64,000 nucleotides of DNA from Candidatus Uhrbacteria bacterium (GCA_043805995.1 JAZDHJ010000059.1:71-64070); one strand, 5' to 3'; shown: positions 14,581 to 32,186, counted from the stretch's first letter. Program-made: numbers and translations. The notes: generated by a model from the sequence alone, not told the origin.

Positions 14581-14617
14581 AAAAAATCAATAAAAAAACA
14601 GGGCTTCTAACCCTGTT
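14581..14617 (-). terminator. Rho-independent terminator downstream of ftsA
   Basis: Stem AACAGGG/CCCTGTT with loop CTTCTAA, followed on the minus strand by a U-run (plus strand AAAAAATCAATAAAAAAA). Confidence 0.7.
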
Positions 14618-14634
14618 TCAAAACTAATTTATTT

Positions 14635-15921
14635 TTACGGCCTCAGCGACTGAAACCACTTACCAACTGTCCCGGCTACGTCTTTCAAGCCTTTAACCTT
14701 ATCGAAAATTTTTCCTAATTTTCCATCGTCAACCTGAGCGGTTAGGTGGTGACCCCAAAGGACCAAGCCGATGGCTGTGGCCATAGATGGATCGTTTACT
14801 CGTTCAACGACTGAGGTGACGCCGATTGGCGTGCCAAGCGAGGCTGGCAGACGTAAATTTTTCTTGGCCGCTTCGACCATACCGTGCATTTTGGCCCCAC
14901 CGCCGGTTAAAACCACGCCAGCTGGCAACATGCCGGAACGACCGACTTTGCGAAGTTCCTCGTCAACCTTTTCAAAAATTTCCTGAACCCGAGCCGAAGC
15001 AATATCGGCAATAAAACGCCGACCGACAATCTCTTCTTCCTCAGCCCCAAGTTCGGCCAAATTAACTTCTTCCTTTTTATTAATTTCTTCTGGGGTAGCA
15101 CTGGCATAACGCAGCTTGGCTTTTTCGGCCACCTCGATAGAAGTTCGCAGACCGATAGCAATATCGGCCGTGATATGAGCGGCACCGATCGGCAAAACTG
15201 ACGCGTACAAAACATCACCTTCTTCAAAAACAATTAAACCGGTGGTGGAAGCGCCGATATTGATGACACAGACGCCAAGTTCTTTTTGTTTATTGGTAAT
15301 GACAGCATCAGAAGTGGCGAGGATTGATAAAACCACGTCTTCGATATCAATACCGGTACGATGAATACATTTTGTAAGATTTTTGATTTGCGAGGTTTGG
15401 CCTTGAACAATTAAAGCATCCACCTCGAGTCTGATACCAGTCATGCCAACCGGGTCGTTAATTCCCCGCTGACCATCGACCGTAAAACTGCGTGGCAGGA
15501 CATGCAAAATTTCACTGTTGGCTGGCATGGCCACCGTCCGAGCGGCATCGATAGCCCGTTCCACATCGTCCTCACGAATTTCACTATCACCACGAGCAAC
15601 CCCGACCACCCCACGGCTTTCCTGACAAGAAACGTGTGTGCCATTAATACCCACCCAAACTCGACTCATTGGCAGACCTGTAAGACGTTCGGCTTGTTCG
15701 AGGGCTTTGGAAACCGAAGAAACAGCATCCTCAATATTGGTGACGCCGCCTTTATTAACACCTTCAGAGGGAACCTCAACTGCCCCGATTATGTGAATAA
15801 CCGGCTTGCCAGTGTCGAGATGATTTCCAGTCGCCATAGCTATTGGTTGACCCACAGCCACCCGCACAGCATAAGAACCAATGTCTAAGCCAACTATTAT
15901 ATCTTCATTCATATCGTTCAA
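14635..15921 (-). CDS. ftsA: Cell division protein FtsA
   Basis: 428 aa; N-terminal IVGLDIGSYAVRVAVG actin-like ATPase fold; typical FtsA length. Confidence 0.9.
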   Translation of the reverse strand: MNDMNEDIIVGLDIGSYAVRVAVGQPIAMATGNHLDTGKPVIHIIGAVEVPSEGVNKGGVTNIEDAVSSVSKALEQAERLTGLPMSRVWVGINGTHVSCQESRGVVGVARGDSEIREDDVERAIDAARTVAMPANSEILHVLPRSFTVDGQRGINDPVGMTGIRLEVDALIVQGQTSQIKNLTKCIHRTGIDIEDVVLSILATSDAVITNKQKELGVCVINIGASTTGLIVFEEGDVLYASVLPIGAAHITADIAIGLRTSIEVAEKAKLRYASATPEEINKKEEVNLAELGAEEEEIVGRRFIADIASARVQEIFEKVDEELRKVGRSGMLPAGVVLTGGGAKMHGMVEAAKKNLRLPASLGTPIGVTSVVERVNDPSMATAIGLVLWGHHLTAQVDDGKLGKIFDKVKGLKDVAGTVGKWFQSLRP

Positions 15922-16311: not shown

Positions 16312-16743
16312 TTAACCGGCTTCCGGCCGTTGCCAATTTATTTTTAAATTTTTCAAAATCTTCTGCTGCAAAAGAAACATTTTTTTTGCTTCAGTTTCCT
16401 TCAAATGGTCATAACCAAACAAATGAATCAAACCATGAACCAAAAGAATAGTTATTTCCTCTTCAAGCGAATGCTGATATTCCCTGGCCTGTTTTTTGGC
16501 TTGAGACAAACAAACCAAAACCTCACCAAAAGTTTCTTCGTCAATAAATGGAAACGACAAAACATCAGTCACCTTATCCTTACCTCGATACGATTTGTTT
16601 AATCGTTTAATTACTCCGGGTGTGACAAAAGCGATTGAAACCTGTTTGTCTTTTTTCAAACGCAAACCCCGAGAAACTTCTGACAGAATCTTTTCTTGAT
16701 TTTTTTTGGACAATGGCGATTTGTTCCATTCCGCTTTCAACAT
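16312..16743 (-). CDS. ybeY: rRNA maturation endoribonuclease YbeY
   Basis: TDVLSFP and HGLIHLFGYDH metal-binding motifs. Confidence 0.9.
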   Translation of the reverse strand: MLKAEWNKSPLSKKNQEKILSEVSRGLRLKKDKQVSIAFVTPGVIKRLNKSYRGKDKVTDVLSFPFIDEETFGEVLVCLSQAKKQAREYQHSLEEEITILLVHGLIHLFGYDHLKETEAKKMFLLQQKILKNLKINWQRPEAG

Positions 16744-16744
16744 A

Positions 16745-17785
16745 CTACTGAACCAAAACCAAACTATTTATCATCATTTCAAAAGTCGCCAGATAATCAA
16801 CCGTGGCTTTAACGGTATTTGAATAACTCATAATCACAACTCGACTACCAGCCTCGATGTAAACTGTCATTTGATCTTCAGTTACCAACATTTGATAACC
16901 GTTTTTAGTTTTTGATTCACTAATTTTTATATTTGAGGTCGGATTAGCATTACTAAACCAGGCAGCTAAAGGAATGGCCGCGTCTTTTTCTTCCAAACTC
17001 AAAATTACACTTTCACCGCTCGGCACAACAAAAACCATATTATTTAATTTTTCAGGCTCAGTTTTTGCTGTCCAAATTGTAGGATAATAAAGTGAGTAGA
17101 GATTCTCAACAGAATATTTTGTGACCAGGGCAGTATCGCTCAACTTGGCCGGTGAAGGCACATTTGGATCATAACCGTGAAAAACCTCATTACCGTCAAG
17201 AAAACCATCACTATCAGTGTCTGGTTTTTTAGAACTGGTGCGATAAAAAATTTCTTCGGCATCAGTCAAACCATCACTGTCAGTATCACGACCGGGTTGA
17301 GAGTTATTTGGAAAAGGCGAAGTAGTTGTTCCGCCTGTAGTCACCGGTGGAGTTTCCACTACAACCGGCGGGGTTTCTGTAATTGTCACCGGTGGAGCGG
17401 TATTGACCGGTTTGTTGGTAGTAATGGTTTGATTATTTTTAACCGGCTGAAGTGAATAAAAAACATAAATACCAGCCGAACTTAAAACCATCAAGAGAAC
17501 CACGCCGGCAATAATGATCAGCTTAGTGGTTTTGGCCAGGCCTTTCTTTTTCAAAATCGAAACCGGTTTTACTGGCGGTGGCGGTGGAACCGGTTTAACC
17601 GGAACCGGAGCCGCCGATTGAGTAGCGGCCGGCTTAATTACCGGCGGATTCACCCTAGCCGCCAAACCGCGAAAACTTTCAGGCATAGCAAAAATTTGCG
17701 GCTCGCTTTGAGACGGTTTTGCCCCTGGCGGAGTTTCTAATTTTGGTAATTGAACGTCGGGCATATTTGTTGGCTGAAATTTCAA
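16745..17785 (-). CDS. Membrane protein: Pro-rich cytoplasmic N-terminus, one TM helix, extracellular thrombospondin-type-3-like Ca-binding repeats, plus a C-terminal domain
   Basis: DTDSDGLTDAEE and DTDSDGFLDGNEVFHGYDPNVP motifs; TM segment LIIIAGVVLLMVLSSAGIYVF; stop abuts the ybeY start. Confidence 0.6.
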   Translation of the reverse strand: MKFQPTNMPDVQLPKLETPPGAKPSQSEPQIFAMPESFRGLAARVNPPVIKPAATQSAAPVPVKPVPPPPPVKPVSILKKKGLAKTTKLIIIAGVVLLMVLSSAGIYVFYSLQPVKNNQTITTNKPVNTAPPVTITETPPVVVETPPVTTGGTTTSPFPNNSQPGRDTDSDGLTDAEEIFYRTSSKKPDTDSDGFLDGNEVFHGYDPNVPSPAKLSDTALVTKYSVENLYSLYYPTIWTAKTEPEKLNNMVFVVPSGESVILSLEEKDAAIPLAAWFSNANPTSNIKISESKTKNGYQMLVTEDQMTVYIEAGSRVVIMSYSNTVKATVDYLATFEMMINSLVLVQ

Positions 17786-17884
17786 ATGACAAATTATTGA
17801 ATGTCAAATGATGGATTTTTATTTTTCTAAAAAATTAAGCTTCCTTCATTAGACATTTGACATTCGATCAATTTGAAATTTCCA

Positions 17885-18541
17885 TTATTCCCCTTCAGTA
17901 ACCGGCAACTCAAACAATTTGCCGGCGCCGTTTGGATTGTAGCCGCTTTTAACTTCATCGCCATCTTTATAACTATCACCGTCAGTATCCGGCGACAGAG
18001 GATTAGTGTGATAGACTTCAACTTCTTCGCGGTCAAACAAACCATCGTCATCAGTATCAGTTGAGGTTGGGCTGGTTCCAAGTTCAGCTTCACGAGTGTC
18101 GGTTAGACCATCTTTATCAGTATCAACCTCAACCACCGGTTCGACTACCGGCGTCTGAACCTCGGTTTTGACAGGAGGAGTTGTTGGGATAGTTTCGGTT
18201 TTTACTTGAGTGTTCGCAGTATTGGCAAGATTGTTAACACTTTCAGTAACCGGTTTAGAACTCGAGAGAATGTATCTGGACAACATGGCTCCGGCGGCAA
18301 TAACCACGATCGCCCCAAGAGCAATCAAAACAATCGGTTTCCAAGCAATGGTTTTAGCCGGTTTCACTTCGCTACCAACCGACGGCATACCAGGCGGAGT
18401 TGCAATGTTTGATGGTGGTGGTTGAATAGGTGGAACAGTTGGGCCAGTTGAGGGTACGGGATTACGAAAAGGTGGTGGTACAGGCGATTGATCAACTGAG
18501 GCAAAAATATCTTCGGGTGGTTTTTTTAGTTCGTCGAACAT
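17885..18541 (-). CDS. Membrane protein with C-terminal TSP3-like repeats; paralog of 16745-17785 and 18885-19772
   Basis: DTDKDGLTDTRE, DTDDDGLFDREE, DTDGDSYKDGDEVKSGYNPNGAGKL. Start set at MFDELKK, because the 20 upstream codons of the track ORF (MAGPRQNPMPAGN...) are a translation of the cruciform repeat. Confidence 0.6.
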   Translation of the reverse strand: MFDELKKPPEDIFASVDQSPVPPPFRNPVPSTGPTVPPIQPPPSNIATPPGMPSVGSEVKPAKTIAWKPIVLIALGAIVVIAAGAMLSRYILSSSKPVTESVNNLANTANTQVKTETIPTTPPVKTEVQTPVVEPVVEVDTDKDGLTDTREAELGTSPTSTDTDDDGLFDREEVEVYHTNPLSPDTDGDSYKDGDEVKSGYNPNGAGKLFELPVTEGE

Positions 18542-18565
18542 ATGGGTTGAAATTTCTAAATTATT

Positions 18566-18618
18566 CCCCGCCGGCATAGGATTTTGGCGGGGTCCCGCCA
18601 AAGGCCTCCGCCGGCGGG
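18566..18618. promoter_or_regulatory. Nested cruciform element CCCGCCGGCATAGGATTTTGGCGGGGTCCCGCCAAAGGCCTCCGCCGGCGGG, immediately 5' of a start codon
   Basis: Outer stem CCCGCCGGC/GCCGGCGGG and inner hairpin TTTGGCGGG-GTC-CCGCCAAA; copies at 45752-45804 and 60033-60083, partial copy at 33466-33510; flanked by AATTATTGAAT iterations. Confidence 0.45.
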
Positions 18619-18646
18619 ATAATTATTGAATTATTGAATTATTGGG

Positions 18647-18879
18647 GGGGTGCGAATAACGAATTTTGTTATCCCGCCGACGGAGGCCTTCCTCCTACGC
18701 TCGGGCTTCGGAAGGACAGGTTGGCGGGATCCCGCTCCGAGGCCTACGAGGCGGGACGAATCTACGAATCTACGAATATGAATTTTCGTCCGTAGAGACG
18801 TTGCATTGCAACGTCTCTACGATCGATCGCCGACATTCGTATATTCGTAAATTCGTAATTGATTCGTTATTCGCACCCC
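18647..18879. mobile_element. MITE copy 1 (233 bp) with 18-bp terminal inverted repeats GGGGTGCGAATAACGAAT / ATTCGTTATTCGCACCCC
   Basis: TIRs read directly; internal hairpin TAGAGACGTTGCATTGCAACGTCTCTA; carries a nested CCTTCGC-family unit that copy 2 lacks; ends 5 bp beyond the stop of the adjacent gene. Confidence 0.7.
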
Positions 18880-18884
18880 AATCT

Positions 18885-19772
18885 CTACAACCTTCCTTCC
18901 CCAAGCGGATTGTAACCACCGTCTATTTCGACCTTATCGGAATAACCATCGCCGTCGGTATCAGATTTGGCTGGATCGGTTTTGTATTTATGATACTCGT
19001 CATAGTCAGAAAGTCCATCACTATCTGAATCTATGTTTTCATCACTGATGCCAAGTCGTTTTTCAATTGACGCGTCAAGATTATCCAAATCTTTATCACC
19101 AACCCCAACCGAATCAACGCAACCGCCCTGATCTTGGGGGTTCGACAAAAGCATGCACTGGCCAGGATCTCTGGACGCAATCGCCTTACTTAAGGCTTCT
19201 TGTCTAGTACAAATACTCGGATCAATACCAGTTCCTTGGCATCCTTTTTGCTGAGCAATCTGTTCAGAGACAGTATTAATACATCTGGTTTTACCAATTT
19301 CGCTATTAATTTTTTCGCACCAAGACAAATCTAAATTCACCCCAGCCAAACTTCGATAAACCGTATCCTGACAACCGGTTTGTTTTTCCTTGATTGGAAT
19401 ATTTTTACAGGCTTCAGGATCATTTTCTTGTAAAGCTATTTTCCAAACACAAGTCACCAAAGAGTCATCGGTCAGCTTATTGCAAATTTCAGCTGAACCG
19501 ATTGAACCGGCACTCATTTCCACCATATCAGCTCGACACTGTTCAGGAATTTTAGCTTGATCGCATTCAGACAAAGTTCGGTCCAACTCCAAACTTACTC
19601 GTTCAATGACCGCGGCCTGCTGACCAGCTTCGGTTTTTGTCGAAATCAACCACCTGGCCCCAAAAATAATCAAAATGATAAGAATAACCGTGCCACCAAT
19701 TATAGCAATTGTCTTCCAAGAAATAGGCCCTCGGGTAGGCGCATATTGATCAAAACCGTTCATAAAAAGCAA
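18885..19772 (-). CDS. Membrane-anchored Cys-rich extracellular protein with C-terminal TSP3-like repeats
   Basis: N-terminal TM helix TIAIIGGTVILIILIIFGARWLI; more than 20 Cys; C-terminus DSDSDGLSDYDE...DTDGDGYSDKVEIDGGYNPLGEGRL; start is 4 nt from the giant gene stop. Confidence 0.6.
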   Translation of the reverse strand: MLFMNGFDQYAPTRGPISWKTIAIIGGTVILIILIIFGARWLISTKTEAGQQAAVIERVSLELDRTLSECDQAKIPEQCRADMVEMSAGSIGSAEICNKLTDDSLVTCVWKIALQENDPEACKNIPIKEKQTGCQDTVYRSLAGVNLDLSWCEKINSEIGKTRCINTVSEQIAQQKGCQGTGIDPSICTRQEALSKAIASRDPGQCMLLSNPQDQGGCVDSVGVGDKDLDNLDASIEKRLGISDENIDSDSDGLSDYDEYHKYKTDPAKSDTDGDGYSDKVEIDGGYNPLGEGRL

Positions 19773-19775
19773 AAG

Positions 19776-22700
19776 TTATCTGATCGGACAATAGTTTAAA
19801 CTTATATTACTAATGTTAATTGTACCAGTTCCGTTAAAATCAAATTTTATTGGAATCTCACTTTCTGTGGCGCCGTTACAAGCAAAACCTTCTGGGAAAG
19901 GTATGGTTACACCATTACCTTCGGTTACTGGCCCAGAAGTTATATGAGTTCTGTTATTAACTTCCGTGGTTAATCCAATATGCATATTTACAATGCTCCC
20001 AAGTATTGAATCGAACATTGATGTAAAACCCGAAGCTGTGGTGGCCGAATAGGCATACTCAACACCGTCTTCAGCGTTCTCACGACAATCGGTAACACTT
20101 TCAAAAGGATCGTTGGCTGGATAATTGCAAGACTGCGGGATAGATTCACTACAATAACCATCGATATCATCATCACTAAAAATACAGTTACCTTCGGCAC
20201 ACTGACTATCGTCCCAACAATCGTAGAGTTCTTCCTCATCATTAAGATCCTCGCAATAACCTATTATTCCATCGTTACAAACTGAATCACGGTGATCCTC
20301 TTCTACGTCTGCACATGTAATTGTCGGATCGTTTGAGCAACCGCCTAAACTGCTACACGATGGATAATCTCCACCGCAAGTCGTTCCATCCAGACTGCAC
20401 GTTCCAAGGGCAGAAGAGTTTGTGTCACAGTCATCACTGGAAAAATGTCTCATGTAGCCCAGAACGGTATCAGAATCATCCAGAGGTAAGGCGGCCGAAT
20501 AAACTTTAATTCCAGCTGCCGTTAACTCATTAGTAACAACTCGAGCTTCATCCGCGGCTGTGTCAATAAATTCAGAATAAGCCTCGCCATATGAACCATC
20601 TGACATTCTGACATTTGGCAAACCGTCGCTTAAAAGGATAACGATTTTACTTTGAGCATTCGAACGTGATAATAAATCTTTTGCGCATAACAAACCCGCA
20701 GCTGTTGGTGTTCCATTCTGTAAACGAGAAGCATAAGAAACAACACCGTGATCCGAATCATACAAAAGATCACTTTGGATATTTGTAAAACCCGCATCAG
20801 TAAACGCCAATGGCACCGCATCGTCTCTGCTGGTAACACAAGCCGAGGCAAGAATTGCCAGACCTTGATCAGTTGTCAGACCTTGATCCCAAAGGCTTTC
20901 TTCACCAGAAAAACTGACTAACGCAATTCGCAATTCATCAATATGATCAAAAAGGTCGTCTATTGTTTGAGATAAAACTTCGGTCGCAACACTAATACTG
21001 GTTCCAGGAGCCATTGGCGTATTTGTGTAACCCATAGTAGTGGAGAGATCGGTCACAAAAACAATGTCAGTAGAAGGCGGTGTCCAATTAGTGGTATCGA
21101 TATCGGCGGTTATAGCTGTGCCTATTTCGCAAGCCGGAATAAATAACGTTGCCAAATCAGGACTGTTACCGGCCCGATTATTAAAATCATAAAGATCGGC
21201 GCTGGTTTGTTTGGAAGCTCCGGCTAATTCGGTTTGAATCAAAATCGAAGTTGATTCATAAGTTGTCGGACAAGTAGCGTCGCAGCTATTGGCGCAAGCC
21301 GGCTCAACACAAATTCCCGCGTCGCCAGACTCATCTAATCCGCATTCCTTAGAACTGCTATATGATCCGACCACATTCACACACGGTTCGGCATTGTAAT
21401 AATATTGGTTTGTCGATTCATAACCCCCATTACAAGCTCCAACGTTTTCACAAGTATAACCCGTGGCACAGTCGGCTGGTTGTTCACAGACTGAACCAAT
21501 AATACGTAAACTTGGATCGATTGAACCGCTGAAACAGTACCTGGGAGAATCGACACCATCGCAAAACTCGCCGGTCTGGACAGTTGCATCGCCGCAGTAG
21601 GCACCAGAAACTGTGGTGTACTGACAATTTATGTTGCAATAAGAACAAGTGTCATCATATTCTGGTGAGCAAACATCACCATTTTCATTTCCATTGTCAC
21701 AGGTTTCGTGACCGGCATAAACATAATCATCACCACAAACACTGACTGTACATTCAGAAGTACAATCATCGGTACTATCATCATTACCATCATCGCATTC
21801 TTCATCACCTTCTAAAATTCCATTACCGCAAACTTGATCGCCACCCAAACAAGCGGTCCAAGTTTCCCAAGTACAAGTCGCGCCAGGGGCGTCATTGCAA
21901 GTTCTGGTACGTGACAGTTGATACTCGGCCGAGCTGCAGGTACCGTTTGCGGCCGCGCAATCCGAACCACAAGGATAACCATCTTTAATTCCTCCATCGC
22001 TGCTCTCGCAAACTCTGGCAATATTACAAGCTTGAAATCCCGTAGCGTTACCGCAAACTCCACCGGTTCCGCAATCACTGTCCACGGTGCATTCTTCATT
22101 AATATTGGTTCCGGCGCTACAAAGACTGCCACTCCACGATTCGTAACCACCATCACAGACTTCGGGACCATTCAGCTCACCGTCACCGCAAGACGGACCC
22201 GGGAAGGTGCAATCAAAAGCGCAAGTATCGTCGTAAGTTGTATCGTACTGACCATTGGCGGCGTCACAACTGTTGATAGAGGCCCAACTGGTGGCAGGCA
22301 GATTTGAAGACCAATTGATGGTTGAATAGCAATCACATTCTTCACCACCAGCAATAAAACCATCGCCGCAAGAAAAAGAACCACCGTTACAGCTTTGACT
22401 ACAATGACCATAAGTACCATTTTCTTCTCCGTCGTCACAAAGTTCTGTTCCCTCTTTTACGCCATTACCACAAGAATAAGGAATGCAAGCCGACGTGGCC
22501 GCTGTCTGCCAAGCGCAAGTGCTAACTGAATTCACCATTGTTTCCACACAACCAATATTTTGAGTACCTCCTGTACAAGTTCGAGATTCGTATTCACCGA
22601 TTTCACAAACCTCGGCCTCGTTAACAGTTAACGTATTTGGATTATCTGTTGCCTTAACCCCATCTCCACAACGAGACGAAGAAGTTCCCATGGTTACATT

Positions 22701-25700
22701 ACTACACATTGGTCCGGTTGTTTGAAAACCGCCCGATGTTGCCGGATTTGTTAATGCCGATTCTGCTGAAGATGATGTATAAGCATACTCAGCATAAAGC
22801 GTGGCGTTGTCGGCTGAGTCGTCATCAAGTGAGTAACCCCAGGTTCCGATAATATCACTGCCTTCAAGTTGTACGCCTAATTTATAAGCCACGCCGCCAA
22901 GATTTTGGTAAAGATAAACGTGCGAGCCCTCATGACAAGTAAATTGCCCGGCCGCACTGTCCCAACAATAATTTTCATCGGCACCGGCATGACAACCAAC
23001 AAATTCATTTATTGGATCCGTCGGCAAAGTTGTCCCCAAAGCATTATCTAATTCTGATGTCCATGAAGGCCAAGTGCTGGTAGTAAAAGATGAAAGGAAG
23101 GTACCGCTAATTAATGGCGGCACGTGTTGCTGACAAATTTCATTACCCGGACAATCATCATCTTCGCCGCACAACTGATCGGAGGTTACCGAACAATAAC
23201 TGAAAAGCTGACCATAATTATCAATAATCGTGGCGATTTTACGAGCGTCGGTTAAACGTTTTAAATCTCGAGTCAATTTAGCTTTTTCTCCATCACAAAA
23301 AGCCGAGTCGTCAGTTATTGTTCCACCAGACTGAGTTACTCCCTGACAATCACCGTCCCAATCGCAGGAGACGAGATTTTCGTCTGTATCGTAAACGTAA
23401 TTTACACTTATGGAATCCTCAGTACCTCGACTTTTACAGACATTATCGGAACAAAAGAGTGAACCAGCGCCCGCATCGCATTCTTCGTTTAAAGTGCAGG
23501 GATAAGGTTGACCATCTGAATCAAGAACGGTTTCTTCTGTCGGCAAAGTTATGGTAACAGAATCTTTACAAACATTTACATCGGTGATTACCGAATCGTT
23601 GGTGTTGAAAGTCCAACTATCCAAAACTTGACCAAAAATATTTTCCATTTCGTCACTTGCACCCTCATTATAAGAAATGACGTAAATATTTGGATAAAGA
23701 ATTTTTGTCGAAGTGACTGGATCATTAGAATTGACTGCGGAAACATAATAAGTATTTCCGTCTTGTACCGCTTCGTAACCATCAACAGTGGTCTCTGAAG
23801 GTGAGCCGGTAAAACCTTGATCGGCAAACCAATCGGCTGGAGTAAGATAATTAGGATTTGGTAAAACCCGAACGCCGATGGCGTCGTTATTTGCCAAAAA
23901 GAGCAATTCTTTAAAGATTGTGGTCGAAGCAACCGAGGTTACTTCCCTCACAGTTAAGCTAGGTAAGAGATCAGTTGAACCGGCTTGATCTCGACAGTAG
24001 GAGAAGGCGAAATTGGTGAAATTACCGGTAGCCGACAAACCAAGTTCGACAGCACTAGAGCTCGTGTCTTCAAAACGATAACTACCACCAGTCCTTCTGG
24101 TGGCCGGCCAAGGATTGCTGCAAAGGAAAGTTGTCAAATCAGTTTGACCTGTAACAGATGCATTGACTGTTCTGCCGGAAGAATCAACACTTGTGATATT
24201 TGCCGAGATAACAGCCTGAACCGTTCCATCCTGAGTTTCCGAAGTGGCAGTAGTTGTTCCGGTACCAGTGGCAGCTGGAATGTTCACAATGGTTTCATCG
24301 CTAGCTTCAGTTGAACTCCAAGCACCCCAAGCCCAAGAATAAACACCTGTTATGCTTTGAATCTGTGAGGCCACGGCTCCGTTTAGTGTGAATCCAGCGG
24401 CTGTCAAAGTATGTTGTTCGCCGGTTGATGAGAAAAACCCTGGACTCGGATCTTCATAAATATCGGCACCGATTATTCCGTTATCAATAACCGAAACGTA
24501 ATCAAGAGTACAAATATCTGCCCTGGTCACAAACATGCTTGATTCATTGTTTAACAAATCAACGCCGTCAGCGCTCATCGCTCCGTTTGTATAAGTACCG
24601 GTTGAATTAGACTCACCCATTATGAATAAACTATATTCAGCGTTGGCCACCAAAGCTTCTGGCAAATCAAGGCCAATTTTTGTGGGAGTTACCAGGGTAT
24701 AATTTACCGGCACCAGACAGGCTGAAATTGTCGTGGCTTGAGCACCAAAAATTTGCAAAATATTATCTCTTAACCAATGCCAGGCCCGAACCAACAAATT
24801 TTCATCTTCGTTATTTTCCAAAGTCAAAGAAACAACAGAAGTATAAGACTCCGGGCATTCTGTCAAATCGTCAACAGAATTACCGGCCGTACAACTAGCG
24901 TCTATACAATCTATTTTATTCAATTTCAAATACAAAGTACCTGAATTTTTTACAGCCTCAACATCCATTGGTTGACTGAAATTAACCCAAACTGCCGTAT
25001 TACGACAAACACTTGTCGCACTAATCTCTGGATAACGTCCGAGAACCGTCGGACGACTAAAACAACAACTGGAATTACCGCAGCCGTAACTATTTGCATC
25101 AGTAGTAGAATTGCAGCTGGCATCGGTGGTACAAGAACACTGCAAAGTTAAATAACCATCGCCTGTTTTATTACTTACATCTTCTTTGGCTGTAATTTTC
25201 GAAGAAGCAGAATTTCCTCCCTGGTCGCGAATCTCTTGTTGCGCCGTGTTGGAAATATAAGCCAAGACAAAAGGAGCAATCCTTGTTGCACTGGCCGAAG
25301 TTGCCTCGCACTCTTCCCCAGTTTCCCTGACACCATTACCACAAACAGCGCGACGAGAATCACTTGAACCTTCGGACAAACAGCTGGAAGAACAACCGTC
25401 GCCGCTCACAGAATTTTCATCATCACAATCTTCGCCAGTCTGAGGAACACCGCCGTTACCACACAGCGAATTATAAATAGACGAGGAACCTTCGTTCGTA
25501 CAACTCGATGAACAACCGTCACTGTTTGTAGTGTTTTCGTCATCGCAATCTTCGCCTCCTTCAACAACACCGTCGCCACAAATGGCCGGATAATTACTTC
25601 TTGATTCAGAACCAAGATTCAAACAATTCGCAGAACAATTATTGGCCGAATTTTCATTACCATAATCGCATTCCTCGCCACCAGCTTGATCGCTATGGGC

Positions 25701-28700
25701 CACATCACCGTTTCCGCAAGTTGTACCAACCGAAGAAGCACCAACAGATAAACAAGTTGCTGAACAACCAGGATGACTAGTCAATGCCGGATGGCCTGTC
25801 GACGCCCCAAAATCACAATCTTCACCTGCATTAATGGTTCCATTACCACAAGTTGAACCCGTTGTTCCTATATTCAAACAAGTTGTGGAACAACCAATAC
25901 CACCGTCGCAATCTTCACCCGGTTCTACACATTGCCCATTATTGACATTACATTTTTCGCCGACGCTACAATCACTGTCTGCATCACAATCAAAAACTGC
26001 ATTGTTACCGCAAATGGCCACCGGTGCCGGCGAACCGGTATTTAGACAAAGACTAGAACAACCTACTGGCAAACTTGAAGCGACCCTTAGAGGACTTGTT
26101 CCGCTATAACCAAACAGAGAAGCCACGGTTGCGATTGTGTCGGCCAATTGTCCCTCGTAATCTGTAGCCGTCCAAGCTTCCCAATTATATCCGGAAGCAA
26201 TCAGACGCTGACCTTCGTCAGAACAGTCGTCGGCTGTACCGAATGGCACAGCGGTAAATCGCTGGATATCACCGATTCTTTGCAAAGTGGCCGAGCTTGG
26301 TTCAACTTCAACCCGATCCACTTCGCAGGTAGCATCACCGGTCGTAAAAGTCCAAGTAAGATCACCGTTATACCAAGCCATGTCTCCAACAGCCTCGGCC
26401 AAAGTGGAACCGCTGTCTGATTCGGCATCTTTAGAAACCGTCACGCGGTATGAAGTGTTGGCAATTAAATCAGAGTGGTTAATTATTAATTGATAAATTC
26501 CATTTATAGCATCACCTGTATAAACCGGTGAAATGTGTAAACTGGAAGTTACATCGGTTACTTCGTCTGGAGCGCAGGCTTCGTCTTCACATCCAAACAA
26601 CTTGACTCGATTGTTAGCAAAAGTGTCGACTTTCATGGCCAGATTAAATGTGAGACCAATCTCGGCATTCAAACAAGCCTCGGAACAACTTGGCCAATAA
26701 TTACTAACTTGCGGATCAGAAAAATTAATGGTTAATTCACCAGAACCATCGACGCTTCTTTCACCCCCATTACCATAGTTAAGTTCAAACCAAATTGAAA
26801 CAGGCGATCCGACGGCGGTTTCTTGATACGGCAAAGCCAAGGCGTCGCATATGGAATCCTGCACTCCAACCGTGTTCGGATCTATATCGGCCGCTCTATC
26901 TACAACTGCAGCTTTGGTACTGTTTCTTGAACCGAAATCCCAAAAATTATCCCCGGAATCGCAAGTTAAAAGAGTGCATTCGTATTCCTCTGACACCGGT
27001 GTAGCCGAATAAACTACGGCCCCTGTGCAAGTTAAATCACCCGCCTGACAAATACTATTGGCAGTATACTCAGCCGGATCAACTAAAACCCCCCCAACCG
27101 TACAAGGCTCGCCGTCGGCCGAGGTTTCAAAATACCAGACATAATTTTGCAGCATACCCAAACCTCTTGCACTTAAAACACCGGTTTCGCCACCAGAAAC
27201 TGTTACCTGGTAACGTTTACCCGGGAGCCAACCAGATCCTTCCGGATAATTTGGTTGCCAAAAAAAGCTCCGACTGGTCGGACTCGAAGCCACAGTCATT
27301 GGTACAACTGTCGTGCAGGAATCGCCGACGCATTCTTTAACTAAAATAGTACTGGCCGTAAAAGTTGACGAATTCATGTCCTCGGTAAAAGACACGTGCA
27401 ATATTGCATCTGAACAAACATCTGTGCCACCCTCCCAACCTTCATAAGGCGACGGTGAAACGATTCTTGGGGAGACGCCCGGCGCTGAACACTCCACTTG
27501 AATTGCCGGATTATGTGGAATATCACCGGTGGAAAAACGATAAGCATAATGGGCAGCAAAAGATTCTGCCCCACCACAGCCTAAAGTTGTAGACGAACAA
27601 GCTCCAGTATCGCAACATTCTTGACCGGTAGCACAAGTAAAATCAACATCGCACATTCCAACCTGAAAATTTATAGAATTTGATTCTTGTCCGTCCTTAT
27701 CGACTATAAAAACCGGACCGGTTTCAGTACCTTCTGGCACTGACATTGGATGAGCAATATTACCGAGAATCTGACCGTCGTCCCAAGTAACCGGAGTCGG
27801 GGTGACCTCTACGCCATTATAAAATTCCACTTTTCCAAAAGGAGCCACCGTGCCGGCATCGTCCTCAAATCCCTCACCATAAATCGCCACAGTTGTACCC
27901 ACCGGACCAGCGTCTGGAACCAAAGCACAAATACCAGGCGAGGCCTCACCAGCAGTCACCAAAAAATCGATAGTATCCGAAGACAAGCCACCACGCACCA
28001 CCCATAAATCATGCAAACCGGCAACTACTGCCGGACTGGTTTGAGTTAAGCCATAAACCGCCGGAACCTTGATGACAATTGTGTCGTCTGACCAATAAAC
28101 CGATTCGCAAGCGTCAGGAAAATTATTATTGCCAAGCCCTTCGTATTCAGTTGATTGATTTTGAAAACGAACCGTGCCTTGAGTGGTGCCAAAATTTGAG
28201 CCATAAATTGTTACGTATTGTCCGGCCGGACCGGCATCAAGACAAGACGAACCACCGCAATCCGCATCGCTTGAACAAAGAACTGTGGAATCATTAACAC
28301 AACGCCTTAAACCAGAATCAACATCGATAATAACCGGCGGTTCGGTATTGGAAGAAGTGCTAACCGCAAATTCTTTAACATTGGAGCCTTGGCGGCTATC
28401 AGCCTCACCGGAAAAAAATTGAACATCATAAAAACCACTGTCCAAAAGCGGCGAAATGACAGAAAAAGAAGTTCCATCAGAATTCCAATTGGCATAACTG
28501 GCGGCTTCGTAACTGCCAAAATAAAAAGTGGAATTGCTCAATTCAGCACCAAAATTTTTTCCAGATACCGCCACAGAATCACCACCCTGACCCGCATTCG
28601 GCGATATATTACAAATACCTGGTCGAACTGTAGTATTCACGTCAAAATCACCAATGACAGATCCGTTATCATCATTAGTTTGGTCAAATTTATCATTAAC

Positions 28701-30284
28701 ACTATTTGTAACCTTAATTGGACCGTCTTTGGCACCGGTTGGAACTTGAACAACTATTTCGCTATCCGACCACCAATCACCGCAAGCAGAATTAGAATTA
28801 ATTAATACACTTTCATTGTCACTGACCCCAAGAAAAATTACCGTACCAGCTGTCGTACCAAAACCACTGCCGGAAATGGTAATCAGATTACCTTCAGCTC
28901 CATCGCCAGGCGAAACTCTTTCAATTTCAATCGTGCTGGTGCAAATTCCGTTTTCACAATTACCAGAACGACAGTCGCCATCGTTATAACATTCAGCGCC
29001 ATCACAAGCTCCACAATAATATTCACCGGTGCCGCCGCAGTCGCAAGGTTCTGGATCAACACAAGTACCTGTTTCATAATAAGGATCACCTGAATCAGAA
29101 ATATCGTTATCGCAAGTCGCCGCTCGCAACATTACATTAACCGAACCCGAATCTGAATTTCCGGCACAATCGCTACCCTCGGCCACAATTGTGTACTCAT
29201 GATTAGTAACTTCGCCCGTTGTATTCCACCAACCATCAAAATAATAAGTATCCGGAACAAGCGAATCGGCGGTTCGATAGCTGGTGCTATAAACATCGTC
29301 GCCGCCAACCCAAAAAGTTACCAATGACACACCGACATCATCGACAACTTTCGCTTGCAACGGTTCAGCTCGATCAGCAAAAAGTGAATCACCGGTTGAA
29401 GGACGTTGCATGGTTACGATTGGAGCCGAAACATCCAAACCGCTACCGGTTGTAAAAGAAAAGTCGCAAGGAAAATCTTCGTTCGAACAATCAATTTGAT
29501 AACCGGCTGAACTTTCAAGTGTTGGATCGATAGTTACATCAAAAGTTGTATTTGGTTCGAAACAGAAGAAACCGGAGACGTCTTCGCAAGAATCAAGCGG
29601 AGTAAAAATAAAAGTTTGAGCACTTAAAGCAGTACCGCCAACGGCTGTAAAAGTTCCGGCCACTTCATCGCCAGCTATATCGATTCTAATTTTACTGTTT
29701 TCGGTAATTTCGGCTTTATTGACTCGTTGACTAAAGACAAATCTGGGTTGATAATTTTGAATGGTGGCGGCGCAAGCCGTATCTAAAGGATTCAAAACAA
29801 AAGTTGTTGTCCAATCCGGAACCTCCCAACACTCGGAACCGACACATCCATTTTCTTCTGAAACATTAGTTTCAACACCGCCCCCCATAGCCGTGGTAAT
29901 CCTCGAGATAAAAAACTGAGCAATGGCAAAAGAAGATAAAATTATTACCAAACCAATCAAAGCATTCTTCATTACCGCCTTGGCTTTTTTTATTTTTTCC
30001 TCTTCCCCACCAGCCGTGGTCCACAAAAAACCGGCGTAAATTACAAAACAAACAGCCACCACACCAACAAACCCAAGCGCCACTCGAATTATATTGGCGA
30101 TGAGCAAAACCAAACTAACATTGGCCAAACCGGCTGTTGAAGCAAAGTTTGCACCATTGGTTCCGCCAAACAATTCGTTGGTTGAAACCGTGGCTGCTAA
30201 GGCCGAGTGCGAAACCAAGAAAACAGCGGCCGAAAATAGCACGGCGACCAGAATGATTTTAAGTGAGGGGTGAAAATTTTTCAC
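19776..30284 (-). CDS. Giant surface protein (3502 aa): VirB2/TrbC-like pilin-fold N-terminal membrane module, IPT/TIG-like repeats, many Myxococcus-type Cys-rich repeats, vWA domain
   Basis: N-terminus: signal peptide, then two hydrophobic helices flanking a KIKKAKAV basic loop, the same architecture as the two upstream genes. Repeated xISGSGFGTTAGTVIF / VTIYGSNFGTTQGTVRF (IPT/TIG-like). More than 10 CGNGxxExGEECDDGNxxxxDGCSxxC units. VTDLSTTMGY...ALVSFSGE...ILLSDG matches vWA/MIDAS. Confidence 0.75.
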   Translation of the reverse strand: MKNFHPSLKIILVAVLFSAAVFLVSHSALAATVSTNELFGGTNGANFASTAGLANVSLVLLIANIIRVALGFVGVVAVCFVIYAGFLWTTAGGEEEKIKKAKAVMKNALIGLVIILSSFAIAQFFISRITTAMGGGVETNVSEENGCVGSECWEVPDWTTTFVLNPLDTACAATIQNYQPRFVFSQRVNKAEITENSKIRIDIAGDEVAGTFTAVGGTALSAQTFIFTPLDSCEDVSGFFCFEPNTTFDVTIDPTLESSAGYQIDCSNEDFPCDFSFTTGSGLDVSAPIVTMQRPSTGDSLFADRAEPLQAKVVDDVGVSLVTFWVGGDDVYSTSYRTADSLVPDTYYFDGWWNTTGEVTNHEYTIVAEGSDCAGNSDSGSVNVMLRAATCDNDISDSGDPYYETGTCVDPEPCDCGGTGEYYCGACDGAECYNDGDCRSGNCENGICTSTIEIERVSPGDGAEGNLITISGSGFGTTAGTVIFLGVSDNESVLINSNSACGDWWSDSEIVVQVPTGAKDGPIKVTNSVNDKFDQTNDDNGSVIGDFDVNTTVRPGICNISPNAGQGGDSVAVSGKNFGAELSNSTFYFGSYEAASYANWNSDGTSFSVISPLLDSGFYDVQFFSGEADSRQGSNVKEFAVSTSSNTEPPVIIDVDSGLRRCVNDSTVLCSSDADCGGSSCLDAGPAGQYVTIYGSNFGTTQGTVRFQNQSTEYEGLGNNNFPDACESVYWSDDTIVIKVPAVYGLTQTSPAVVAGLHDLWVVRGGLSSDTIDFLVTAGEASPGICALVPDAGPVGTTVAIYGEGFEDDAGTVAPFGKVEFYNGVEVTPTPVTWDDGQILGNIAHPMSVPEGTETGPVFIVDKDGQESNSINFQVGMCDVDFTCATGQECCDTGACSSTTLGCGGAESFAAHYAYRFSTGDIPHNPAIQVECSAPGVSPRIVSPSPYEGWEGGTDVCSDAILHVSFTEDMNSSTFTASTILVKECVGDSCTTVVPMTVASSPTSRSFFWQPNYPEGSGWLPGKRYQVTVSGGETGVLSARGLGMLQNYVWYFETSADGEPCTVGGVLVDPAEYTANSICQAGDLTCTGAVVYSATPVSEEYECTLLTCDSGDNFWDFGSRNSTKAAVVDRAADIDPNTVGVQDSICDALALPYQETAVGSPVSIWFELNYGNGGERSVDGSGELTINFSDPQVSNYWPSCSEACLNAEIGLTFNLAMKVDTFANNRVKLFGCEDEACAPDEVTDVTSSLHISPVYTGDAINGIYQLIINHSDLIANTSYRVTVSKDAESDSGSTLAEAVGDMAWYNGDLTWTFTTGDATCEVDRVEVEPSSATLQRIGDIQRFTAVPFGTADDCSDEGQRLIASGYNWEAWTATDYEGQLADTIATVASLFGYSGTSPLRVASSLPVGCSSLCLNTGSPAPVAICGNNAVFDCDADSDCSVGEKCNVNNGQCVEPGEDCDGGIGCSTTCLNIGTTGSTCGNGTINAGEDCDFGASTGHPALTSHPGCSATCLSVGASSVGTTCGNGDVAHSDQAGGEECDYGNENSANNCSANCLNLGSESRSNYPAICGDGVVEGGEDCDDENTTNSDGCSSSCTNEGSSSIYNSLCGNGGVPQTGEDCDDENSVSGDGCSSSCLSEGSSDSRRAVCGNGVRETGEECEATSASATRIAPFVLAYISNTAQQEIRDQGGNSASSKITAKEDVSNKTGDGYLTLQCSCTTDASCNSTTDANSYGCGNSSCCFSRPTVLGRYPEISATSVCRNTAVWVNFSQPMDVEAVKNSGTLYLKLNKIDCIDASCTAGNSVDDLTECPESYTSVVSLTLENNEDENLLVRAWHWLRDNILQIFGAQATTISACLVPVNYTLVTPTKIGLDLPEALVANAEYSLFIMGESNSTGTYTNGAMSADGVDLLNNESSMFVTRADICTLDYVSVIDNGIIGADIYEDPSPGFFSSTGEQHTLTAAGFTLNGAVASQIQSITGVYSWAWGAWSSTEASDETIVNIPAATGTGTTTATSETQDGTVQAVISANITSVDSSGRTVNASVTGQTDLTTFLCSNPWPATRRTGGSYRFEDTSSSAVELGLSATGNFTNFAFSYCRDQAGSTDLLPSLTVREVTSVASTTIFKELLFLANNDAIGVRVLPNPNYLTPADWFADQGFTGSPSETTVDGYEAVQDGNTYYVSAVNSNDPVTSTKILYPNIYVISYNEGASDEMENIFGQVLDSWTFNTNDSVITDVNVCKDSVTITLPTEETVLDSDGQPYPCTLNEECDAGAGSLFCSDNVCKSRGTEDSISVNYVYDTDENLVSCDWDGDCQGVTQSGGTITDDSAFCDGEKAKLTRDLKRLTDARKIATIIDNYGQLFSYCSVTSDQLCGEDDDCPGNEICQQHVPPLISGTFLSSFTTSTWPSWTSELDNALGTTLPTDPINEFVGCHAGADENYCWDSAAGQFTCHEGSHVYLYQNLGGVAYKLGVQLEGSDIIGTWGYSLDDDSADNATLYAEYAYTSSSAESALTNPATSGGFQTTGPMCSNVTMGTSSSRCGDGVKATDNPNTLTVNEAEVCEIGEYESRTCTGGTQNIGCVETMVNSVSTCAWQTAATSACIPYSCGNGVKEGTELCDDGEENGTYGHCSQSCNGGSFSCGDGFIAGGEECDCYSTINWSSNLPATSWASINSCDAANGQYDTTYDDTCAFDCTFPGPSCGDGELNGPEVCDGGYESWSGSLCSAGTNINEECTVDSDCGTGGVCGNATGFQACNIARVCESSDGGIKDGYPCGSDCAAANGTCSSAEYQLSRTRTCNDAPGATCTWETWTACLGGDQVCGNGILEGDEECDDGNDDSTDDCTSECTVSVCGDDYVYAGHETCDNGNENGDVCSPEYDDTCSYCNINCQYTTVSGAYCGDATVQTGEFCDGVDSPRYCFSGSIDPSLRIIGSVCEQPADCATGYTCENVGACNGGYESTNQYYYNAEPCVNVVGSYSSSKECGLDESGDAGICVEPACANSCDATCPTTYESTSILIQTELAGASKQTSADLYDFNNRAGNSPDLATLFIPACEIGTAITADIDTTNWTPPSTDIVFVTDLSTTMGYTNTPMAPGTSISVATEVLSQTIDDLFDHIDELRIALVSFSGEESLWDQGLTTDQGLAILASACVTSRDDAVPLAFTDAGFTNIQSDLLYDSDHGVVSYASRLQNGTPTAAGLLCAKDLLSRSNAQSKIVILLSDGLPNVRMSDGSYGEAYSEFIDTAADEARVVTNELTAAGIKVYSAALPLDDSDTVLGYMRHFSSDDCDTNSSALGTCSLDGTTCGGDYPSCSSLGGCSNDPTITCADVEEDHRDSVCNDGIIGYCEDLNDEEELYDCWDDSQCAEGNCIFSDDDIDGYCSESIPQSCNYPANDPFESVTDCRENAEDGVEYAYSATTASGFTSMFDSILGSIVNMHIGLTTEVNNRTHITSGPVTEGNGVTIPFPEGFACNGATESEIPIKFDFNGTGTINISNISLNYCPIR

Positions 30285-30290
30285 AAAATT

Positions 30291-32186
30291 TTATTGGCTA
30301 ATTGTGACTCCGGTGAATGTGCATGGATCGAGGCTAGCCACACCATTGCAACAATACCTACCAGAATTTGCACCACCACAATTTGAAGTGACATTGTCTT
30401 CTTTTGGTCCATTTGCCGGCGACATACAAATTTGCCAGGCGCTTTTAACACCGTTGGTAATCACTGGATAATAACTGTACAAATCACCGGTTCGTCCGTT
30501 ACCGTTTGAATCTTCGGTGCCGTTATCACTCTCCCAAAAAGTCGCATGGTTAATTGTCACCACAGTAAAATTATCATCAAACGAACTTGGTGTAGTTATT
30601 ACATCAGCAACAGAGCCAGGATTTTCAGCATTGGAATTTTGATACCAAAAAGCCTGAACAAAATCAGGCAACAGTCTGATATTAGTGGAATTAAGAGTTG
30701 AAGATTGCATGAGTGAATCAAAATTGATCGTTACATTCTGATTCAAAGTAACTTGTCCTTGATTAACCGTAGGGCCAACACTGAAAATTGCCGGCACATC
30801 GGTTCTGGGTTCAGCTTCAGTTGTAAAACCCCATTCGTAGTTGTCCAAACTTGACGGAGAACCTGGACCGTCAGCTATGCCATTTCTGTTTCCATCCAAA
30901 GAATTGCCAGCCGCATCAACCAAACCATTAAACAAACCTTCGTCAGTCATGGCCGCTTGAGGCGGATCAGTACTTAACGCAGCAGCCTTGGCCACGACAT
31001 CCAAATTCACATTTCTCGGCAAACAGAAAATATCATTTCCGCAGGGATCAGAACCACAAATTTCGGTTGGTACAAATTCCACAGTTCGGTAGACATTGGA
31101 GACACTATAAGTACCGGCGGTATTGTCTGTGGTGTTTTTTAAAACCTTAATGTTAGTAAACTCCGGTGGCGAGTCTGCTGGCAGAGGTGTTACACCGGTA
31201 TAAGTTCCACTGGCCGCTATTGGGTCCATAGCTTCGTTAAAAGTTATGGCCACAATAATATTTGGCGCTTCGGTTGACCTAAGGGGTGATAAATCGGCTG
31301 GCACAACCGAAACAACTTGTGGTGGGGTTAAATCAACTTCGGTTGAAACCTCGAACTGCCAGGCATAACCTTCAGAATCAAAGGCACCGGCAAAGGAACC
31401 ATTGGGTAAAACTTTTTTAATTCCGGTACCGAGAGTCACGGTATAATTCATTTCTGTTGTGTCGCTACCAAGCAAGACCGTAGGATCAAAGCTAAAAGTT
31501 TTGTGATCGGCTGTAACCGCAACTTGTACTTGACTGCCAGTCAAAGCTACTCCGTCCGCAATATCGGTTGGAGCAATGGTTACGTTGGCTGCGTTTAAAA
31601 CATTAGGGGTAGTCGCAACACCATCATCATCAACCATAATAGTATCGACTTTAATCGCCTCCTTAAAAGTCACATAAATTCTGGTGTTGCGGGGAATTTC
31701 GGTAGCGTCACGGGCTGGATAATGAGATTCAATGATGCCAGAACCGAGTGAACCAGCTAAAGGTTCATTAAAATTTTGCGCTGTAGTGGTGGAAATGCCA
31801 CCGTTTAAACCAGCGGCCTCGAGAAGATAATTTAAAACAAAAGTGGCAATGGAATAAGCCGAGAGAATTATGAGCAACCCGATGATAGTGGTTTTAATAA
31901 TATCTTTGGCTTTTTTGGTATTTTTTTCTTCGCCTTGAGAAGTGAAATAAAGCCAACCGGCATAAATTATTAAACACACCATGATGACACCCAAAACCCC
32001 AAGAACGATTCTGATAATTCGAGCCACTAAAATACCAAGCTCAATTGTAGCTAAACCCGAAGTCTCGCCAACTGTGGATAGTTCGTTAGTTACCAAATCT
32101 GCGGCAAAAGAATGAAATGGTAAAAACAACAAAAAAGCCACGGTGGCAATACCAACTGCCGTAATCAAAAGCCTATTTTTTTTCAC
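30291..32186 (-). CDS. Surface protein (631 aa) with the same pilin-like N-terminal module fused to Ig-like extracellular domains
   Basis: Signal peptide, then NELSTVGETSGLATIELGILVARIIRIVLGVLGVIMVCLIIYAGWLYFTSQGEEKNTKKAKDIIKTTIIGLLIILSAYSIATFVL, aligning with the giant protein's N-terminus; the following region (SHYPARDATEIPRNTRIYVTF...) is also paralogous to the giant's post-pilin region. Confidence 0.7.
   Translation of the reverse strand: MKKNRLLITAVGIATVAFLLFLPFHSFAADLVTNELSTVGETSGLATIELGILVARIIRIVLGVLGVIMVCLIIYAGWLYFTSQGEEKNTKKAKDIIKTTIIGLLIILSAYSIATFVLNYLLEAAGLNGGISTTTAQNFNEPLAGSLGSGIIESHYPARDATEIPRNTRIYVTFKEAIKVDTIMVDDDGVATTPNVLNAANVTIAPTDIADGVALTGSQVQVAVTADHKTFSFDPTVLLGSDTTEMNYTVTLGTGIKKVLPNGSFAGAFDSEGYAWQFEVSTEVDLTPPQVVSVVPADLSPLRSTEAPNIIVAITFNEAMDPIAASGTYTGVTPLPADSPPEFTNIKVLKNTTDNTAGTYSVSNVYRTVEFVPTEICGSDPCGNDIFCLPRNVNLDVVAKAAALSTDPPQAAMTDEGLFNGLVDAAGNSLDGNRNGIADGPGSPSSLDNYEWGFTTEAEPRTDVPAIFSVGPTVNQGQVTLNQNVTINFDSLMQSSTLNSTNIRLLPDFVQAFWYQNSNAENPGSVADVITTPSSFDDNFTVVTINHATFWESDNGTEDSNGNGRTGDLYSYYPVITNGVKSAWQICMSPANGPKEDNVTSNCGGANSGRYCCNGVASLDPCTFTGVTISQ

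Follow-up and report, generated by a model that had tools for sequence, protein, structure and literature searches.

Uhrbacteria and related Patescibacteria are uncultured, tiny bacteria. In a Candidatus Uhrbacteria MAG, three neighbouring genes, here called A, B and C, lie between the gene of a giant surface protein and the genes ybeY, dgkA and ftsA, which raises the question whether their products serve the giant protein, cell division, or neither. We analysed this locus within a stretch of 64,000 nucleotides (the window). A sequence-only reading of this stretch had proposed three paralogous membrane proteins with Ca-binding repeats of the thrombospondin type 3 (TSP3) kind, co-transcribed with the giant gene and with the division genes.

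Gene calls and protein architecture

The three minus-strand ORFs are real and lie where they had been placed. The lengths first given, 238, 295 and 346 aa, apply to the ORFs but not to the proteins, as ATG starts give 218 aa for B, 292 aa for A and 339 aa for C. Protein A starts with the ATG at 19763 and its 292 aa are identical to NCBI entry V1716_04195, and B starts with the ATG at 18541 (218 aa, identical to V1716_04190, and in agreement with the family alignment). The start of C is most likely at 17764, since its orthologues also start with this Met; a search for an identical database entry was negative for this protein. The genes and elements of the locus are as follows.

30291..32186, minus strand: 631-aa protein (Pfam; NCBIfam pilin-like match)
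19776..30284, minus strand: giant surface protein, 3502 aa (Pfam)
18885..19763, minus strand: protein A, 292 aa (Pfam TSP3_bac, models, alignment)
18649..18877, no strand: nested palindromic intergenic element between A and B (folding)
17885..18541, minus strand: protein B, 218 aa (Pfam TSP3_bac, family alignment)
16745..17764, minus strand: protein C, most likely 339 aa (Pfam TSP3_bac, orthologues, model)
16312..16743, minus strand: ybeY, endoribonuclease (Pfam), beginning 1 nt past the C stop codon
15936..16307, minus strand: dgkA, prokaryotic diacylglycerol/undecaprenol kinase family (Pfam)
14635..15921, minus strand: ftsA, final gene ahead of the terminator (Pfam)
14585..14619, minus strand: intrinsic-terminator-like hairpin AAACAGGG...CCCTGTTT with T-run, directly past ftsA

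Present annotations of the three proteins go no further than 'hypothetical protein' or TSP3-repeat protein. At E<=0.001, 533 homologues were found for C and 364 for B, hundreds of them full-length, and about 15 of the 64 matches of A were full-length. An Rfam search of the window returned tRNAs only. Within the three proteins, the following segments were distinguished.

19650-19718, minus strand: A residues 16-38, TM helix after a short N-terminus
19113-19565, minus strand: A residues 67-217, alpha-solenoid with 12 invariant Cys
18888-19097, minus strand: A residues 223-292, three TSP3 repeats and GYNPLGEGRL tail
18491-18520, minus strand: B residues 8-17, conserved N-terminal MFD...PEDIF motif, predicted cytoplasmic
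18278-18343, minus strand: B residues 67-88, TM helix after a Pro-rich tail
17903-18124, minus strand: B residues 140-213, three TSP3 repeats and GYNPNGAGKLFELP tail
17666-17698, minus strand: C residues 23-33, conserved N-terminal IFAMPESFRG motif, predicted cytoplasmic
17450-17527, minus strand: C residues 80-105, TM helix after a Pro-rich tail
17162-17287, minus strand: C residues 160-201, two TSP3 repeats after a stalk
16748-17131, minus strand: C residues 212-339, PsbP/Mog1-like alpha/beta domain

All three proteins show a single strong hydrophobic segment together with two to three DxDxDG repeats, which confirms the one TM helix and the acidic Ca-type repeats that had been proposed. The TSP3 assignment holds through the bacterial model TSP3_bac (PF18884), with scores of 33.2 bits for A, 38.5 bits for B and 25.7 bits for C, in two to three stretches each, at a gathering cut-off of 25 bits; the eukaryotic TSP_3 model of Pfam gave no match at E<=1 in the three proteins. 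The repeats contain EF-hand-like D-x-D-x-D-G-x-x-D-x-x-E loops with a tandem period of about 22 residues, and the profile is 22 residues long. This loop is invariant in C (106-sequence alignment) and in the A alignment, and is present in at least 90% of the B sequences; the third repeat of A is degenerate (DKDLDN) at a place where its relatives have DxDxDG. Since no other ORF in the window contains DxDxDGxxD, the tandem of three such ORFs is not due to chance. The G-Y-(N/D)-P sequence, first taken for a separate motif, turned out to be the tail of the last repeat, which in A (ORF residues 271-290, with GYNP at 286-289) aligns with profile positions 1-20 of 22. What is conserved past the last repeat, in A and B, is a tail NPxGxGKL(F)xVP. 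Paralogy can be upheld for the module and the architecture but not over the whole length, as pairwise similarity is confined to a repeat block of 42-70 aa (E 6e-17, 4e-12 and 3e-9).

In a sequence comparison with solved structures, the Ca-binding region of S. aureus Bap came out closest (E 1.7e-4), ahead of lanmodulin and other EF-hand proteins, and the modelled A repeat pair superposes on Bap 7c7u (45 columns, 1.2 A, Foldseek probability 1.00, E-value 0.8). In a canonical EF-hand, helices flank a 12-residue loop DxDxDGxxxxxE; A, B and C show the loop pattern, and in the structure models each loop is followed by a short helix. The loop pattern and the matches to Bap and lanmodulin suggest that the repeats bind Ca2+. 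The EF-hand models of Pfam did not match A, B or C, and a few homologues of B carry precomputed PF00036 or PF13405. Dockerin_1 (no match at E<=1) and the peptidoglycan-binding OmpA_C domain are likewise absent from the three proteins in Pfam searches, and no cohesin domain was found in the giant protein. OmpA_C was seen only in unrelated repeat-only matches, such as P0136 and P0138.

Outside the repeats the proteins diverge. The one described as very Cys-rich is A, whose 12 Cys are invariant in the alignment; it was found only in a subset of loci, from Uhrbacteria-type genomes, and B and C are broadly conserved families. Structure models of A and C are confident, and the C-terminal domain of C structurally matches PsbP/Mog1/LpqN-type alpha/beta sandwiches in the predicted structure; Pfam gave no match of this domain to PsbP, DUF1795 and the like at E<=1. 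Pro residues number 33 in B, which has a Pro/Thr-rich stalk between TM helix and repeats, and 40 in C. The N-terminal motifs are enriched in their families: DIF precedes the TM helix in 63 of 101 B-like proteins versus 6 of 543 controls, and hhxMP occurs in 75 of 107 C proteins versus 17 of 543 controls, both motifs persisting in the distant L084 and L086 proteins. A positive-inside bias is clear in C (K+R 3.76 upstream of the TM helix versus 1.47 downstream, n=79), weak in B and absent in A. The LPVTEG in the B tail was considered as a sortase signal and discarded, as it lacks a following hydrophobic segment or charged tail.

Gene order and spacing in relatives

Across Uhrbacteria and relatives, two or three TSP3 genes lie between the giant gene and ybeY-dgkA-ftsA, and this order and strand are kept in all GTDB loci with enough contig. 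The gene ybeY directly follows the TSP3 genes in 102 of 107 loci, and ftsA lies at most 10 kb downstream in 67/67 loci. Median gaps in relatives are 3 nt for giant-A, 31 nt for A-B, 11 nt for B-C, -4 nt for C-ybeY (79 species), -4 nt for ybeY-dgkA and 12 nt for dgkA-ftsA, which supports operon-like junctions, as judged from spacing. In the genome studied here, the gaps with corrected starts are 12, 343, 120, 1, 4 and 14 nt in the same order, so that tight packing is found only at both ends of the trio. The trio thus abuts ybeY as had been noted, whereas the 4-nt gap between the giant gene and the first TSP3 gene becomes 12 nt with the ATG start. The argument from spacing to co-transcription therefore stands only in part: junctions in relatives are operon-like, but a single transcript is not implied in this genome, because a structured 343-nt spacer and a 120-nt spacer interrupt the trio. 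The palindromic element in the A-B spacer folds strongly (dG -146.5 kcal/mol, z -12.5); measured against the median A-B gap in relatives, it is an insertion at 18649-18877 and falls outside the conserved cluster.

A coupling of the surface genes to the ftsA/ftsZ cluster had also been suggested, but an intrinsic terminator follows ftsA at 14619-14585, so read-through, if any, would reach ftsA and not ftsZ. Hairpin plus T-run sites were present in 25 of 77 ftsA-ftsZ gaps of relatives versus 2 of 100 controls. Promoter-like sites between 14000 and 20500 (9 found, 10.0 expected) were no commoner than in shuffles, and therefore no internal promoter can be claimed.

The 3502-aa giant is Cys-rich and contains, according to Pfam, a T4SS_pilin head, TIG, Big_5, Big_7, DUF4215 Cys-rich repeats and, close to its C-terminus, a weak VWA; its L002 orthologue has clear VWA matches. 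The 631-aa protein, in which Pfam finds a VirB2-like T4SS_pilin domain at the N-terminus as well as Big_5, is encoded by the first gene of a conserved pair of pilin-headed surface proteins, and such a medium-plus-giant gene pair also occurs in L084 and L086. Among 87 related loci whose upstream DNA could be read, 86 carry a gene for a large surface protein immediately upstream of the TSP3 genes (a recognisable giant homologue in 80/87, an unrecognised large ORF in 6 more), and the synteny with the giant gene, on which the sequence-only reading had staked its case, was thus upheld. The presence of A did not correlate with the Cys content of the giant, which is about 5% in every architecture class. 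In L089, an unrelated TSP3 membrane protein abuts a 2923-aa protein, and L088 encodes a TSP3 protein that has no giant neighbour.

The conserved order includes unrelated housekeeping genes as well (hisS and yqeY upstream; htrA, pyk and nrdR downstream), so adjacency alone is no proof that adhesion and division are functionally linked. In a single lineage, that of L086, L090, L093 and L095, the TSP3 pair is separated from ftsA by opposite-strand clpP, secDF, a Wzy_C gene and pilD; the pair still adjoins the giant genes although the ybeY-dgkA-ftsA adjacency is lost, and ftsA-ftsZ is still only ~7 kb away. Of the unusual coupling of surface and division genes, the conserved gene order remains, but a functional link does not follow from it, as housekeeping genes are conserved too and the TSP3 pair of one lineage is split from ftsA.

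Possible functions of A, B and C

Most likely, A, B and C serve the giant protein. They would be single-pass membrane proteins, most likely with the N-terminus inside and the C-terminus outside, each with a Pro/Thr-rich stalk that displays, on the outside of the cell, a Ca2+-binding tandem of EF-hand-like TSP3 repeats. An outside location of the ectodomain is favoured by the 12 invariant Cys for A and by the positive-inside bias for C. Next to the repeat block, each would carry a distinct interaction module: in A a disulfide-locked alpha-solenoid, in C a PsbP/Mog1-type binding domain, and in B the conserved C-terminal tail only. As dedicated partners of the upstream pair of VirB2-pilin-headed, Cys-rich giant surface proteins, these wall-spanning, Ca-dependent proteins would most likely form a platform for anchoring or assembly, by which the giant is held or organised at the envelope. 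The conserved peptides near the N-termini of B and C (PEDIF and IFxMPxxYRG, respectively) would be the handle of this platform on a cytoplasmic partner. The module is set in an old housekeeping string, hisS-yqeY ... ybeY-dgkA-ftsA, and it probably shares a transcript with ybeY-dgkA-ftsA across most of the clade, with C translationally coupled to these genes. We read this co-transcription as shared expression and not as shared division function, and the whole proposal, platform together with shared expression, we consider to have about an even chance of being right. The link to the giant is favoured by the upstream surface-protein gene in 86/87 loci, by the survival of this link when the ybeY-dgkA-ftsA adjacency is lost, and by the TSP3 protein of L089 beside its large neighbour. 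Against this reading, synteny in the clade is generally high, so that the giant adjacency could be historical; a pilin head embedded in the membrane is already part of the giant, which thus has no obvious need for an anchor; the positive-inside bias is weak in B and absent in A, and A does not follow the giant Cys content; and the trio is loosely packed in this genome (343- and 120-nt spacers).

A possible though rather unlikely alternative is that the three are free-standing Ca2+-binding proteins of the cell wall or surface layer, acting as envelope stabilisers or cation reservoirs with no specific tie to the giant or to division, the gene order being inherited history in a slowly rearranging region. 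TSP3 repeats are indeed very widespread (29,567 clusters at E<=1e-3) and in other proteins occur in fusions with wall-associated domains, for instance OmpA and the L,D-transpeptidase domain YkuD, the L088 protein stands apart from any giant, and the surrounding housekeeping synteny is conserved as well. However, the junction between giant and TSP3 genes survives rearrangement, and the family-specific cytoplasmic motifs and dedicated binding-type ectodomains point to specific partners.

It is less probable, and in our view unlikely, that A, B and C are lineage-specific bitopic divisome or envelope-morphogenesis proteins with a role like that of FtsN or FtsQLB, whose cytoplasmic peptides would bind FtsA, as in PilN-PilM and FtsN-FtsA, and whose ectodomains would act on the septal wall. 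The constant proximity of ftsA, also in the rearranged lineage, the tight or overlapping junctions from C to ftsA, and the place of the trio near the usual position of ftsQ, upstream of ftsA, would fit such a role, as would the series of cytoplasmic peptide, TM helix, Pro-rich stalk and ectodomain, which matches FtsN and RodZ-type architecture. Weak matches to FtsN (E 0.018) and streptococcal RodZ (E 0.04) are far below threshold, however (14.6 versus a cut-off of 107.65 bits for TIGR02223, and 13.1 versus 375 bits), and the FtsN match of B falls on its low-complexity TM and stalk region. No POTRA, SPOR or FtsQ-type domain was found with Pfam, the non-division genes ybeY and dgkA lie in between, and in four loci opposite-strand clpP and secDF intervene before ftsA while the giant remains adjacent. 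Specific identities were also rejected: B is not FtsN, being below the TIGR02223 cut-off and without a C-terminal SPOR domain (Pfam), and an FtsQ/DivIB identity fails on the lack of a POTRA or FtsQ beta match (Pfam) and on the PsbP/Mog1 fold of C. The PEDIF of B as a mimic of the FtsZ C-terminal peptide was dismissed as well, since this FtsZ ends in LEIPAFIRKKMM, and the B motif bears no convincing likeness to its C-terminal peptide LEIPAFIRK.

More doubtful still is the idea that B and C are transmembrane couplers, with peptides that bind FtsA or another actin-like or cytoskeletal protein and Ca-loaded ectodomains that hold the giant adhesin. If true, these epibiont-like cells would place or duplicate their attachment apparatus in time with division, and this would account for the persistence of the module beside ftsA across the clade. 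That the ORFs or repeats are chance features or mis-called genes, for which nothing speaks except that the raw ORF list left start codons uncertain, is refuted by hundreds of full-length homologues, identical NCBI-annotated proteins for A and B, Pfam scores above the gathering cut-off and confident structure models, and is virtually inconceivable.

With service to the giant protein as the preferred reading, the locus represents a near-universal, previously unannotated module of the clade, consisting of two pilin-headed giant proteins and two to three Ca-repeat membrane proteins, each with defined folds and conserved cytoplasmic motifs. It thus supplies concrete candidates, open to test, for the machinery that anchors giant surface proteins in CPR. 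A link of surface organisation to the division operon is possible but so far unsupported, and the very strong clade synteny, covering unrelated housekeeping genes too, calls for caution. The gene cluster appears undescribed so far: no description was found in literature on TSP3 in Patescibacteria, Uhrbacteria ftsA, the CPR divisome, giant Ca-binding surface proteins, PF18884 or PF18895. General context is provided by literature on VirB2-like pilins in CPR.

Comparison with known systems

Bacterial TSP3 proteins (PF18884), for example of the OmpA family, have the same 22-residue acidic repeat with the DxDxDGxxDxxE loop, and there too the repeat block lies between a membrane anchor and an envelope-facing domain. 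In contrast to these, A, B and C lack OmpA_C or a beta-barrel and have a single TM anchor in a CPR cell that we assume to be monoderm-like, and the partner domains of A and C (Cys-rich solenoid; PsbP-like) are new combinations. The C domain resembles PsbP/Mog1/LpqN/DUF1795-like sandwich proteins, but it has no sequence-level family match and is one part of a protein that also has TSP3 repeats and a TM anchor. Dockerin-type repeats likewise consist of two to three consecutive units of ~22 residues with a Ca-loop and a short helix, and by analogy the repeats may mediate Ca-dependent protein docking, although Dockerin_1 did not match and no cohesin-like partner was found.

With FtsN-FtsA and PilN-PilM, B and C share a short N-terminal cytoplasmic peptide, a single TM helix, an extracytoplasmic domain and genes near ftsA, but they have no SPOR or PilN domain, and we take their motifs to be unrelated to RDY/INLLP-type peptides. 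Myxococcus xanthus CglD and MtsD are TSP3 proteins that work alongside a VWA-type surface adhesin. The NCBIfam matches to these proteins of gliding-adhesion and cell-cohesion systems are repeat-only (15-26 bits versus cut-offs of 400-800). CglD and MtsD are diderm lipoproteins, and no orthology to A, B and C is implied. The best solved-structure match for the repeat pair is provided by the EF-hand-like motifs in region B of S. aureus Bap (7c7r, 7c7u; 45 columns, 1.2-1.6 A, 38-40% identity in Foldseek). Bap is a sortase-anchored giant adhesin in which the motif is internal, whereas here it occurs in small membrane proteins that have genes of their own beside that of a giant protein.

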